Of a DNA stretch of 32,000 nucleotides, positions 22,957-29,035 are shown piece after piece. Every line of letters begins with the position of its first letter. Positions within the stretch are counted from its first letter, which is position 1. The notes beneath the pieces are model-generated. The model was not told where the DNA came from and searched no databases. It saw nothing but the letters and a program-made list of their open reading frames with translations. Made by a program: the position numbers and the translations under genes. This stretch comes from Promethearchaeota archaeon (GTDB taxonomy: Archaea > Asgardarchaeota > Hermodarchaeia > Hermodarchaeales > Hermodarchaeaceae), in the NCBI GenBank assembly GCA_048938295.1, contig JBHLMI010000003.1:30001-62000 (forward strand), read 5' to 3'.

Positions 22957-23295
22957 TTACTTAGTCCGTCTCTGCTGACGAATTAGAATACCCATACACA
23001 GTGCGATGATTGTTCCCAGAGCAATGGCTGCAAATGGGAATCCCGGAATTGGAGGAGGTGGTGTAGGCTTAGTTGGAGGTACTTCGTATTCGTAGGTAAT
23101 GCTGAGTGAGGAAAGACGAGGACTACGTTCTATTTTGGTAGTCGTAAGAGTAGCACGCCAGCGTAGGTCATCGCCTGGGGTTGCAAAGGTGTGCATAACA
23201 CCAGGTGTGACAGATTCCCAAGTAGAACCTCCATCCGCAGACATCTCAAATGCAATAGAAGTGCCAGAAGGTTCAAACGCTTTACAAAAGCCTAT
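22957..23295 (-). pseudogene. 5'-truncated remnant of a surface protein with an IPGF-type (PGF-CTERM-like) sorting signal
   Basis: The frame stays open 17 codons upstream of the ATG at 23244 (..AFEPSGTSIAFEMSADGGSTW..) up to a TAA at 23296-23298. No signal peptide. The C-terminus is PPPPIPGF, a TM helix and RQQRRTK. Confidence 0.65.
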
Positions 23296-23330: not shown

Positions 23331-24173
23331 GTGATTAAGCTTGGAACTGCAGGATGGAAGTATGAGGACTGGGTGGGTAGCTTTTATCCTTCGAATAAGC
23401 ACCAGTTCACCTATTTTAGCAAGATCTTCGATACAGCTGAAATCAATTCGACCTTTTATACATTCCCAAGTAAAAAAGTAGTTGAGATCTGGTCTCGTGC
23501 CCCACAAGAATTTTTTTTTACTGCCAAGGTGCCACGAGAAATCACCCATAAACTCCGTTTGGATGTAGAAAAAGGCGCAGATAAACGGATGAAAGATTAC
23601 CTTCAGCTTATGGTCCCATTACTAGAAGCAAACCGATTGGGTCCCCTCCTCATTCAATTACCTCCCTCTTTCGAATTTGATCATATTGACATCTTAGAGA
23701 CTTTTCTACAACCCCTTCCTCGGGAGTGGGAGTATGCAGTCGAGTTCCGTCATCTCTCCTGGATGCAAGATGATACATTCAAGCTGTTACGAAAATTCCA
23801 AATTGCATATTGCATTGTAGATGAACCTCTCCTTCCTCCCCGAATTGAAGTGACTGCCCCATTTGCGTATATCCGCTGGCATGGGCATGGGAAGAAACTC
23901 TGGTACTATTACCTATACAATCAGGAAGAGCTTAGAGATTGGGTTCCAAAGGTCCAAGACATAGAAAAACGAGCACCCAAAGCCGTTTACGGCTATTTCA
24001 ACAATCACTGGCATGGTTTTGCCGCACGGAATTGCATAGAGATGATGGAGCTACTCAACATCCCTCATCACATGCCAAAGCATGTTCAAGAACGCGTCAA
24101 CCGCGTCACTGATGAGCGTATTAAGCAAAAACCAGCGCAGCAAACCTCATTGACAGAATTCTCAGATGATTGA
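23331..24173 (+). CDS. DUF72-family protein (YecE-like)
   Basis: IKLGTAGWKY, AEINSTFY, FTAKVPREITH, LLIQLPPSF, AVEFRH, YIRWHG and YGYFNNH. Confidence 0.92.
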   Translation: MIKLGTAGWKYEDWVGSFYPSNKHQFTYFSKIFDTAEINSTFYTFPSKKVVEIWSRAPQEFFFTAKVPREITHKLRLDVEKGADKRMKDYLQLMVPLLEANRLGPLLIQLPPSFEFDHIDILETFLQPLPREWEYAVEFRHLSWMQDDTFKLLRKFQIAYCIVDEPLLPPRIEVTAPFAYIRWHGHGKKLWYYYLYNQEELRDWVPKVQDIEKRAPKAVYGYFNNHWHGFAARNCIEMMELLNIPHHMPKHVQERVNRVTDERIKQKPAQQTSLTEFSDD

Positions 24174-24182
24174 GAACATAGA

Positions 24183-24602
24183 TTACTTCGAAATCCTGGG
24201 CTCAGATTTCCCACTGGATTTTGATTTGATTCTGGAGTACTTGTAGAACGGAGCCATAAGCAAACCACCAGAAAATACAGCTGTGATTGCTAGCAGTAAG
24301 ATATCAAAGAGCTGTGGATGCACGCCAAAGATACCTTGAAGGGAAACAAAGACAATGATAATCGCGAATGATAAAATCACCTGGATGGCGTAAGTAAATC
24401 GATAGAATCCTGTTCGCACCTGAGAGAGATAATAAGTCATCGTTGCACCGATCCCCCAAATTAGACCAAGTCCCACTGCCCAAAGGAGGCTTAAGATATA
24501 GCCGAAATAAATTGTGATGAGAAATAGCACAGCCATTATCATCATTAGAATAATGACACCTGGAGTCCAAAGTGTTGGATTCTCATTTTCAGAATCTTCC
24601 AA
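24183..24602 (-). CDS. Four-TM membrane protein
   Basis: Four hydrophobic helices; GAGGT RBS upstream of the TTG start. Confidence 0.7.
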   Translation of the reverse strand: MEDSENENPTLWTPGVIILMMIMAVLFLITIYFGYILSLLWAVGLGLIWGIGATMTYYLSQVRTGFYRFTYAIQVILSFAIIIVFVSLQGIFGVHPQLFDILLLAITAVFSGGLLMAPFYKYSRIKSKSSGKSEPRISK

Positions 24603-24648
24603 TTTGTACTTACCTCACTTGGTTGTTTTTCAGGTTGCTTAGATGATT

Positions 24649-25362
24649 CTAGATTTCTATGCGGAGTACACCATAAGTAGTGAGCCACAATCCGATGAGC
24701 ATGAGAATCCGTCCCGATGTGATCACTTGGCAAACGGGGATAACGCGGGTTTCGAGAAGCCCTCCGATTAGTAAGAGGAATAAACCTAGAAAGACAATGA
24801 ACGGTACGAGTTTGGATTCATAGCCTTTGAACTTACGATAATAGAAGTCAATGGCTAGACCTGTAAAAAAGGCTAAAGAGAGACCTACTGTCAGAATGAC
24901 AATAATATCTGGGCGAATATCAGAGATAACCCCAGAACACACCCATTCAGCTGTAGCTGGATTGGATAGAAGCACCACATCGAGTATTACTATGAGCAAA
25001 GGAACGAAAAGGAGGATGACCCCCCATTTTCGAACTTCGAACCACATTGGATGGGCTAAAAGAATACTCCAAAATCCGATGAATGTCACACCAAGCATAA
25101 ACAGGATCCAAAACCATTGCCAGTAAGGAAAGATCACGACAAGACCTGGATGGGTTGGGAAAAACGCTGCACGATAGGTCCATACAGCATGAGCGGCGAA
25201 AAAGAAGAGAAGCGCGATCCCAAACATAATCGTTGGTCGTCGTTCCGGACACCCTTGCTTTGATGCATGATAGAGCGCAATCAAACCCAAAAGGAGTGTA
25301 GATATCATAAAGAGAAGACCGATGGTAAATGTCGTAGCATTCGCCAAAATATATTGGAACAT
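24649..25362 (-). CDS. Stand-alone 7TM membrane protein (HisKA_7TM-like sensor region, no kinase)
   Basis: Seven hydrophobic helices. A GGAGA RBS supports the ATG at 25362 (MFQYILAN...). Confidence 0.7.
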   Translation of the reverse strand: MFQYILANATTFTIGLLFMISTLLLGLIALYHASKQGCPERRPTIMFGIALLFFFAAHAVWTYRAAFFPTHPGLVVIFPYWQWFWILFMLGVTFIGFWSILLAHPMWFEVRKWGVILLFVPLLIVILDVVLLSNPATAEWVCSGVISDIRPDIIVILTVGLSLAFFTGLAIDFYYRKFKGYESKLVPFIVFLGLFLLLIGGLLETRVIPVCQVITSGRILMLIGLWLTTYGVLRIEI

Positions 25363-25494
25363 TAGAACATCTCCATAGTGTTGTTGTTCCGTGACGCTCC
25401 TATAAAACATTGACTAAACTTGTAAAGAAATAGACGAGTAGGAGTACATACTCTGAAAGAATGCACGGCGTCTGGGTTAGTTTCAAGAATTGCC

Positions 25495-26247
25495 CTATTT
25501 GAGAAAGAGATTCGCTAACCGGTATCCGAACCACAAGAGGATGAATCCGACAAGAATGACTGCACGGATACCTACGATTTCAAATGTAAGTGGTGTTATG
25601 AAGAGAGTGAGGAAATCGGCGAGGATACCCACGAAGATAAGTAATAATCCCAACCACATCATCATATCCTTCATGAAGACCTTTTGTCCAAGTCCACGGC
25701 GAGTTCGCATCCAAAGCCAAATGGAAATGAGAGGAACAAGCGCGAGGTAAAACACAGCTGATACTGTAGCCAAGACAGTGAACCCTATTCCATAATAGGT
25801 TCCAAGATTCGGGGCAATCCAACTCACGAACCCATGGACCACAACGTAGGGATGACTTAGGACTGCAAGCCAGATAAGAATGGCATAGCCTCCTAAACCA
25901 ATGAGTGGAATGAGTGCCCCCCATTGGGAGCGACCAGAGAAGAATTCCTTATTGAAAATTCGGATAGCCCAAAAGACCATGAAGAAGGCAGCGAATGCTA
26001 TGAATAGTCCCCATTGGACGGCCCACCCTTGAAGCATAAGCGCAGTGGCATTGGGGATTACTACTATTGGGCGTAATCCAACTGTAAGGTAGGCCAAAGA
26101 AAAGAAGATTAGCATAAATATCGCTAATAGCAAAAGAATGCGGTCTTGTTCAGGTCTGCGAATGTACTCGATAAAGAGGCTCAATCCGAAGATAAGTGTG
26201 ATGATGAATATCGTTAAACTGATGCCAGCGTCTAAAATGATTGACAG
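25495..26247 (-). CDS. Stand-alone 7TM membrane protein, paralogue of the neighbouring gene; probable CTG start
   Basis: The frame is open upstream of the TTG at 26184 and adds a complete first TM helix. GGAGGT lies 6 nt before the CTG at 26247. Confidence 0.65.
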   Translation of the reverse strand: MSIILDAGISLTIFIITLIFGLSLFIEYIRRPEQDRILLLLAIFMLIFFSLAYLTVGLRPIVVIPNATALMLQGWAVQWGLFIAFAAFFMVFWAIRIFNKEFFSGRSQWGALIPLIGLGGYAILIWLAVLSHPYVVVHGFVSWIAPNLGTYYGIGFTVLATVSAVFYLALVPLISIWLWMRTRRGLGQKVFMKDMMMWLGLLLIFVGILADFLTLFITPLTFEIVGIRAVILVGFILLWFGYRLANLFLK

Positions 26248-26394
26248 GTGAAAACCTCCGGAAGCATGACTCCGCTTGAAGACTTATAAAAATGTAGCTT
26301 TTGTGACGATTTTTCTTCTAAGAAGGAACTAACCTTTCCTTTTTTATCGAGAGCCCTGTAATGTTATGCATTCTTCATACGTAGAGGTGATTTC

Positions 26395-27399
26395 ATGGGT
26401 TCGAAACTCCGATTTGCAGTTGAATTTGTCCCACAAGAAGCATACTGGCAGACCACCGCATTAGGGATTTTAGCTGAAAAATATGGCTTCGATTTTTGCT
26501 GGATTACCGACCACTTTAATAACCGATCAGTCTACATCATTTTGAGCCTGTTAGCCAACTATACAGATCAGATTATGCTCGGGCCAGGTGTCACCAATCC
26601 GTACCTAATCAATCCCGTTCAGACTGCCTCTACCATTATGTCCTTGGACAACCTTTCTGGAGGACGTGCCGTCTTAGGCATTGGAGCAGGAGATAAGATA
26701 ACATTGAATCTCTTAGGGATTGAACGTGATAAACCACTTTCAGCTGTGAAAGAGAGTGCTCAAATTTTCCGTACAATCTTTGACACGGGAAAGATCAAGG
26801 ACTTTGAGGGTGAGGTGTTTTCCGTCGAGAAAGCAAAAGTGGCTTTTGAGAAGACCGGGGAAATCCCCATCTATATTGGCGCACAGGGACCCAAGATGCT
26901 GCAACTCGCTGGATCCATGGGCCAAGGCGTCCTCATCAATGCCTCCCACCCAGCCGATTTTAAGTATGCTATGACGCAAATAAAAAAGGGCATCAATGAG
27001 GTGAATCGGAAACTTTCTGATGTGGACATCGCAGCCTATGCCAGCGTCTCAGTCGACAAGAAGATTGAAAATGCCACTAAGGCGGCTACCCCTGTTGTCG
27101 CTTTCATTGTGGCCGGTTCTCCGTCAGTGGTCTTGAAACGCCACGGCATTTCATCTGAAAGTGTTAAGCCGTTAGCGAAGGCTCTTGGGAAAGGTGATTT
27201 TCCCACCGCCTTTGGAGCAGTCACCGATGAGATGCTCGAAGCCTTCTGTATTCGGGGTACACCTGATGAATGCACTGAAAAAATAAAAGCCTTGGAGAAA
27301 GTTGGTATCACCCAATTCGTCTTCGGCTCACCAATCGGACCTAAGAAACGTAGCTCCATGGAACTAGCTAGTAAAGAAATTCTCCCACATTTTACTTGA
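26395..27399 (+). CDS. mer: F420-dependent 5,10-methylene-tetrahydromethanopterin reductase
   Basis: WITDHFNNRSVY, LGPGVTNPY, GRAVLGIGAGD, IYIGAQGPKMLQLAG, VLINASHP and FVFGSPIGP. Confidence 0.92.
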   Translation: MGSKLRFAVEFVPQEAYWQTTALGILAEKYGFDFCWITDHFNNRSVYIILSLLANYTDQIMLGPGVTNPYLINPVQTASTIMSLDNLSGGRAVLGIGAGDKITLNLLGIERDKPLSAVKESAQIFRTIFDTGKIKDFEGEVFSVEKAKVAFEKTGEIPIYIGAQGPKMLQLAGSMGQGVLINASHPADFKYAMTQIKKGINEVNRKLSDVDIAAYASVSVDKKIENATKAATPVVAFIVAGSPSVVLKRHGISSESVKPLAKALGKGDFPTAFGAVTDEMLEAFCIRGTPDECTEKIKALEKVGITQFVFGSPIGPKKRSSMELASKEILPHFT

Positions 27400-28654: not shown

Positions 28655-29035
28655 ATGGCGAGAACTACAGTCCATGATGCAAACCACGAAGAGATACTTC
28701 GGGAAATTATCGCGGAGCTGGATCAGCGTCGTGGAATCAAGGGCTGGGCTATTATAAGCCAAGAAGGTTTGCTGATTGAGCATCGAATGCCCGCAGGCAT
28801 CAATCCGCACCTACTGGCAGGGAACGCGGCCGCCTTGGCGCATTCCGCTCATGTTGTCATCGGGCAAACAGAATCAGGTCCTATGAACCGTGTGATACTC
28901 GACGGAGAACGTCACTTCCTCATTCTCGTGGGTGGAGAGAATCAACTTATTTTTCTTGTCATGGTGGAGCACAAAACCGACCTGAAGCCCTTGGGTGAAT
29001 TCCTCGCTACCGCCGCAAACCGATTTCAAAGCTGA
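28655..29035 (+). CDS. Roadblock/LC7 (MglB-like) domain protein
   Basis: GIKGWAIISQEGLLI, LAGNAAAL and the beta-strand pattern VILDGERHFLILV. Confidence 0.85.
   Translation: MARTTVHDANHEEILREIIAELDQRRGIKGWAIISQEGLLIEHRMPAGINPHLLAGNAAALAHSAHVVIGQTESGPMNRVILDGERHFLILVGGENQLIFLVMVEHKTDLKPLGEFLATAANRFQS

Follow-up and report, generated by a model that had tools for sequence, protein, structure and literature searches.

What two adjacent membrane proteins, each with seven transmembrane helices and neither with a built-in output, do for an Asgard archaeon is the question raised by a locus in the Promethearchaeota archaeon assembly GCA_048938295.1 (2.5 Mb, 66 contigs, 91.6% complete). The locus lies within a stretch of 32,000 nucleotides (contig JBHLMI010000003.1, positions 30,001 to 62,000 of the forward strand), referred to here as the window, in which all coordinates are given unless another contig is named. 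It consists of three consecutive genes on the minus strand at 24183-26247, with B, A, C as the order of transcription. Gene B (25495-26247, minus, CTG start) and gene A (24649-25362, minus) encode stand-alone seven-transmembrane (7TM) proteins with predicted lengths of 250 and 237 residues, and gene C (24183-24602, minus) is an open reading frame (ORF) for a 139-residue protein with four helices. A and B are deep paralogues in a small superfamily of stand-alone 7TM proteins which is restricted to Asgard archaea and has no family name, their models have a receptor-type fold, and the superfamily may be a distant relative of HisKA_7TM, the 7TM input region of histidine kinases.

Seven transmembrane helices were found in A and in B by hydropathy, and the same number was obtained in AlphaFold2 models of A (predicted local distance difference test, pLDDT, 72; predicted template modelling score, pTM, 0.75) and of B (pLDDT 72, pTM 0.71), in accordance with an initial annotation made from the DNA letters, which had placed two adjacent seven-helix genes here. 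Lysine and arginine residues are clustered in loops 1-2, 3-4 and 5-6 of both proteins, so that by the positive-inside rule the N-terminus is predicted to lie outside and the C-terminus inside. The motifs described as common to the two proteins were recovered with one correction: FW ends helix 3 (with an invariant W114 in A and conserved F92/W93 in B) and R-x3-L-x-G is present in helix 7 of both, whereas the helix-6 motif is one residue longer than had been given and reads GLxLxxxGxLx(E/D) in A and B. The helix-3, -6 and -7 motif blocks of A and B are placed in register by hhalign. The suspected extracellular cysteine pair was likewise recovered in A, where two invariant cysteines, C158 and C227, are each found in an outside loop, and further invariant polar residues of A (H74, D144, E220 and R234) are located in the membrane or close to it. 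Among the orthologues of each protein, conservation is higher in the loops of either face than in the helices, with values of 0.86 for inside loops, 0.82 for outside loops and 0.78 for helices in A, and of 0.81, 0.77 and 0.73, respectively, in B. Residues 66-68 of B (26050-26058, minus), in the first outside loop, form an N-A-T/S sequon (IPNAT) that is kept in most orthologues and is a possible N-glycosylation site.

B contains its helix 1 only when it is translated from a conserved CTG. None of the codons ATG, GTG and TTG is present before the first hydrophobic helix, and the public records of B and of most of its orthologues begin at an internal ATG, giving a product of 206 residues from which helix 1 is lost. 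The start of B at the CTG at 26247, and with it the predicted product of 250 residues that the initial annotation had proposed, is shown by comparison of orthologous loci. A Shine-Dalgarno sequence GGAGGT (26254-26259, minus) is located 6 nt before the CTG, and the arrangement GGAGGT-N6-CTG-TCA was found in 8/8 loci of the genus that were scanned, while the 6-nt spacer itself is variable. Codons 2-44 exhibit a coding pattern, with variation of 20/9/36 by codon position in six of these loci, and paralogues with an ATG start have a helix 1 to which the additional N-terminal helix can be aligned. A candidate TATA box TTTATAA was read from the sequence about 40 nt before the CTG (26284-26290, minus), and its TAA is an in-frame upstream stop which leaves no room for an earlier start. 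The TTATAA of this box is conserved in orthologous loci, and the element may well function as a TATA box of B.

The start of gene A corresponds to Met17 of a 253-residue ORF in 15/15 relatives, which gives the 237-residue product. The longer ORF was rejected as an artefact, its first ATG (in the region 25401-25410, minus) being located inside a conserved TTTTATA box; finding ORFs by the longest frame over-extends A by 16 residues. The putative expression signals of A (25369-25407, minus) comprise this TATA-like TTTTATA at 25401-25407 and a Shine-Dalgarno sequence GGAGAT at 25369-25374, 6 nt before the ATG, and in 10 genus loci a TATA-like box and a GGAG/GAGG motif keep these distances upstream of A. 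A and B each have a candidate TATA box of their own, which speaks against a recent tandem duplication. Gene C, which the initial annotation had correctly noted as a four-helix gene following on the same strand, starts 46 nt after A, and because of this short gap and the lack of a TATA box in between it is probably co-transcribed with A. That an Asgard archaeon has a conserved start codon other than ATG, GTG or TTG may be of consequence for gene prediction in the group, and automated surveys of topology or fold that rely on the truncated public records would miss B and most of its orthologues as 7TM proteins.

The two models were compared with 48,161 representative chains by VIA-align. All 50 structure matches listed for each model were seven-helix proteins, nearly all of them GPCRs (G-protein-coupled receptors), and the entries other than GPCRs comprised two designed GPCR-like folds, a few microbial rhodopsins (for A only), ACER3 and one unclear entry for A. 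Foldseek against the PDB returned weak GPCR matches only (best E-value 3e-3, template modelling (TM) scores 0.5-0.57), and profile searches of the PDB sequences gave no match. On these models A and B have a receptor-type seven-helix fold; neither another number of helices nor a transporter or enzyme fold, the outcomes that had been named as contradicting the initial annotation, was indicated by the models and the listed matches. The dominance of GPCRs in the structure matches, together with a Roadblock/LC7 gene in the window (28655-29035, plus; PF03259, E-value 6e-10), would fit true archaeal homologues of eukaryotic GPCRs that signal via Asgard small GTPases and roadblock/longin regulators. 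This idea is very improbable, since no link to the Pfam GPCR families was found at sequence or profile level (the best match was one B relative to STE2 with an E-value of 0.15), and the motifs DRY at the inner end of helix 3, CWxP, and NPxxY in helix 7 are absent from the A and B alignments. The roadblock gene, of a kind that the initial annotation had suggested modelling with the pair, is located 2.4 kb from the 7TM genes on the opposite strand with two other genes between, and a tie to it is not supported. In the ESM Atlas, moreover, models of HisKA_7TM proteins are ranked above the class A GPCR cluster, for which the TM-score was 0.60.

Scans of A, B and C against Pfam, NCBIfam, PADLOC and PHROGs gave nothing meaningful. 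Matches of B to YtpI (E-values 2e-4 to 9e-3, below the cut-off) cover a two-helix stretch only and were discarded as hydrophobic noise. A and B alone are not significantly similar by BLASTP, and their paralogy, as claimed in the initial annotation, is established by profile comparisons rather than by pairwise BLASTP. The profile of family A was aligned by hhalign end to end with that of family B (71%, E-value 3.7e-5) and with the rest of the superfamily (99.4%, E-value 4e-21), and a profile built without A or B finds four genes in the genome, namely a second pair on contig C41 (E-values 7e-76 and 1.7e-65), B (5.9e-39) and A (2.2e-20). A and B are, by these sequence comparisons, true but deep paralogues. 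In a quick tree of 31 chosen rows A stands apart on a long branch, as the superfamily's most divergent branch, and B is nested among sequences of other lineages; on this quick tree the split between A and B is old and not the result of a recent local tandem duplication.

The size and range of the superfamily were determined by an exhaustive hidden Markov model search of 1.84 billion representatives, in which it comprised 24 clusters only. None of them exceeds 264 residues or is fused to another domain, which agrees with the stand-alone nature ascribed to the pair beforehand, and a dedicated search for longer relatives of A found none, although this is weak evidence. Every named member is from an Asgard archaeon, and a member is present in 36/400 genomes of the phylum. 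Within the genus, 12/14 other genomes contain members, with 2-7 matches each that are often arranged in tandem, whereas Asgard genomes outside the genus carry, with few exceptions, just one; A proper and B proper hardly occur beyond the genus. A and B therefore are members of a small, Asgard-restricted superfamily of stand-alone 7TM proteins without a family name.

The second tandem 7TM pair of the same genome belongs to the same superfamily and is located at C41:86727-88302 (L078 7539-9324). Its first gene seems to be without a nearby ATG at the conserved N-terminus. Behind the pair comes a gene for a 407-residue protein that combines an Lrp/AsnC-type helix-turn-helix with cysteine-rich zinc-ribbon-like motifs, followed by a gene for a HEAT-repeat protein. 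This gene order recurs in pieces in two other genomes of the genus, where L028 has the regulator and L027 the HEAT protein.

Kinship with HisKA_7TM (PF16927) had been proposed in the initial annotation and was assessed by hhalign against targets from Asgard genomes, i.e. 29 HisKA_7TM regions, 10 HlyIII and 17 rhodopsin regions, with a reversed control. Family A matched HisKA_7TM at 38.5% (E-value 3.3e-4) over 200 collinear columns, the whole superfamily at 22% (E-value 9.5e-4) over 133 columns, and family B alone at 1.8% (E-value 0.027) over 43 columns. For any A, B or superfamily profile the values did not exceed 2.4% against HlyIII (short alignments of up to 31 columns), 0.1-0.2% against rhodopsin and 1.3% against reversed HisKA_7TM, the latter two over varied columns, so HisKA_7TM is the only profile link above background, and it is collinear. 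The structure search of the ESM Atlas, which covers A since no Atlas model exists for B, gave TM-scores of 0.66-0.71 to HisKA_7TM proteins, the best named structural neighbours there, some of them stand-alone and others with a GGDEF, EAL or kinase domain attached, and five clusters with PF16927 and/or GGDEF, EAL or kinase outputs were retrieved, all of them predicted models. By sequence features, 10% of the members of the named Atlas cluster nearest to A and B carry HisKA_7TM. These profile and structure comparisons lend weak support to the proposed kinship, whereas the family libraries lend none: PF16927 (cut-off 28.6 bits) found neither A nor B nor any of 37 aligned relatives at E-values up to 10, no NCBIfam match was obtained, and nothing in the whole genome was matched by PF16927 at E-values up to 1. 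The superfamily may be a distant relative of HisKA_7TM, by a link that is weak but specific.

HisKA_7TM itself is absent from the genus (0/14 genomes) and from its family (0/18). It is common in one other Asgard family (18/21 genomes; loci L031-L060), giving kinase-linked 7TM sensors a patchy distribution, and the Asgard HisKA_7TM regions are located in ORFs mostly of about 600 residues, which presumably encode kinases. 7TMR-DISM was considered as a competing family, and PF07695 gave no match even in control genomes, which renders that search uninformative.

The same profile comparisons bear on the suggestion that A and B are degenerate rhodopsin relatives without the retinal lysine, or archaeosortase-type peptidases that use the cysteine and arginine of the outer face. 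The archaeosortase idea was prompted by the invariant cysteine and arginine on the outer face of A and by a Loki-CTERM tail gene nearby; both ideas are close to refuted. Neither A nor B has a lysine in helix 7, as stated in the initial annotation, which had excluded rhodopsins on that ground, and the genome has a real rhodopsin gene elsewhere, at C63:1579-2181 (L101; PF01036, E-value 1.9e-23). The exosortase/archaeosortase models of Pfam and NCBIfam match neither protein, and the genome possesses its own PF09721 archaeosortase-type gene on the same contig as the 7TM genes (C32:67585-68112).

A gene with a PF01036 domain is present in 10/14 other genomes of the genus and in few other sampled Asgard genomes. 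The Loki-CTERM tail belongs to a 95-residue ORF (22957-23244, minus) which ends in the sorting signal (NF033507, E-value 9e-4, narrowly below the cut-off), lacks an evident signal peptide and may be a remnant or have a mis-called start. In the whole genome 16 Loki-CTERM matches were found at E-values up to 0.1, 12 of them above the cut-off.

For the role of the pair, the leading reading, with chances that appear evenly balanced, is that A and B are membrane sensors, perhaps far HisKA_7TM relatives without a built-in output. A stand-alone sensor is suggested by the receptor-type fold, the conservation of both faces, the lineage-specific amplification and the weak tie to a kinase input module. 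Several results weigh against it. The locus has no linked gene for a known sensor, kinase, GTPase or transducer, and outside the genus the superfamily members occur in varied, unrelated gene contexts with no common neighbour. The HisKA_7TM signal reaches no accepted threshold and comes mainly from family A, and the models are of middling confidence (pLDDT 72) and built from shallow alignments. The cytoplasmic surfaces of A and B are very small, with loops of at most 14 residues and tails of 3-5 residues, and no recognisable signalling domain was detected in C by the Pfam and NCBIfam scans. The separate signalling partner that the initial annotation had envisaged finds no support, and no result speaks for the heterodimer or for the bearing on the origin of 7TM signalling that it had put forward.

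The main rival to a sensory role is a non-signalling task in the membrane, in which A and B would serve as a structural component, as a lipid-facing enzyme of the seven-helix ACER/PAQR type, or as a channel or carrier for small molecules or ions, and the receptor-like fold would be a common way of packing helices. Such a task would account for the lack of a signalling partner in any context and for the invariant H74, D144, E220 and R234 of A, and it is a contender to be taken seriously, if on balance rather unlikely. The His/Asp metal-site constellation of the PAQR kind is absent, A having a single invariant histidine; the hhalign values for HlyIII/PAQR are those of the background given above, and PF03006 is found in 0/13 genomes of the genus. 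No internal repeat of the type usual for small transporters was found, and the columns conserved throughout the superfamily are few (two invariant and two nearly so), with none catalytic-looking.

A different kind of alternative arises from the way in which the locus evolves. All genus loci that cover the whole region have the order DUF72 gene, C-A-B, luciferase-like gene, the flanks in the window being the DUF72 gene at 23331-24173 (plus) on the C side and the luciferase-like oxidoreductase gene at 26395-27399 (plus) on the B side. A and B are side by side wherever a contig spans both and C is always next where the contig reaches; of the other genomes of the genus, 11 have both A and B and three have neither, although a gene order conserved inside one genus is weak evidence for a functional link. 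Among the genus loci, identities are 45-89% for A, 39-88% for B and 27-74% for C, compared with 75-91% for the DUF72 protein and 82-97% for the luciferase-like protein, so that A, B and C are diverging much faster than the flanking genes. Fast-evolving surface proteins for virus or cell contact or for self-protection of an immunity type, instead of environmental sensing, would be in line with this divergence and with a family that is almost confined to one genus and amplified there in tandem arrays with some broken copies. This explanation is nevertheless improbable: neither PADLOC nor PHROGs gave a match, the locus is fixed between housekeeping genes and has no mobile-element features, and the outside loops are conserved among orthologues, not hypervariable.

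If A and B are membrane sensors, the absence of a built-in output means that the signal must be handed to a separate protein, and the conserved features permit a tentative route to be drawn. The cue would be read at the conserved outer face, in A at loop 4-5 and the C158-C227 pair and in B at the block THP..HGF..APNLTTYYG. The change would be passed on via helices 6 and 7, by way of the acidic residue common to the end of helix 6 and the arginine in helix 7, and the conserved basic inner loops would then meet a separate partner. C is the only candidate for such a partner in the locus. Its four helices leave both ends inside, the N-terminus being acidic and the C-terminal tail basic, and it is conserved after A in every genus locus reaching that far. 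No significant similarity of C to A, B or HisKA_7TM was found, and the possibility that it is a truncated paralogue of the 7TM proteins is not supported, the best value being 27.5% over 70 columns.

Sensory rhodopsin II is a stand-alone 7TM sensor that passes its signal sideways within the membrane to the helical partner HtrII, which is encoded adjacent to it. By analogy, C could be a transducer-like partner of a 7TM protein and could touch the receptor inside the membrane. Carried to its end, this line of thought would make A, B and C a new type of archaeal receptor complex that is complete in itself and signals entirely within the membrane, from a 7TM sensor to a helical partner. Its fold would have an ancestry in common with HisKA_7TM and eukaryotic GPCRs, and it would be a surviving case of the ancestral, unfused 7TM sensor in the lineage from which eukaryotes arose. 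So far-reaching a proposal is a long shot.

The result is mostly descriptive and consists of a superfamily, its range and copy number, and a corrected gene model. If the proteins are sensors, an unfused, Asgard-only branch would be added to the 7TM input modules of histidine kinases, and a compact three-gene system would be available for asking by what means a prokaryotic 7TM protein that has no output of its own can signal, a question that bears on the rise of receptor-type 7TM signalling. Stand-alone receptor-shaped 7TM proteins of Asgard archaea are already on record as structural clusters (10.64898/2026.10.28.762692), listed as Asgard '7TM proteins' in this preprint, which cites Eme 2023 and Liu 2021. 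Added here are the assignment of A and B to one superfamily and the census of the latter, the C-A-B module and its conservation, the comparison of the weak but specific HisKA_7TM signal with controls, and the CTG-start model.

Compared with known 7TM systems, A and B resemble GPCRs in having seven helices, an N-terminus outside and a C-terminus inside, and, in the models with pLDDT 72, the helix packing of GPCRs. They differ from the class A, adhesion/B2 and class C receptors in showing no sequence or profile kinship, with identities of 4-14% in structural alignments, and no genes for a heterotrimeric G protein or an arrestin were recognised in the neighbourhood. Microbial rhodopsins (PF01036) are set apart from A and B by the retinal lysine of helix 7, and sensory rhodopsin II differs from them in the same residue and in kinship, although it offers a precedent for a stand-alone 7TM sensor; HtrII differs from C, which has four helices and neither a HAMP nor a methyl-accepting domain. 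HisKA_7TM, for its part, forms the N-terminal input region of histidine kinases and GGDEF proteins, whereas the superfamily of A and B is never fused, and the identity between the two in the profile alignment is 14%. The likeness nevertheless extends to a length of about 220-250 residues, seven helices and short loops, and the ESM Atlas cluster includes stand-alone HisKA_7TM proteins of 248 residues.

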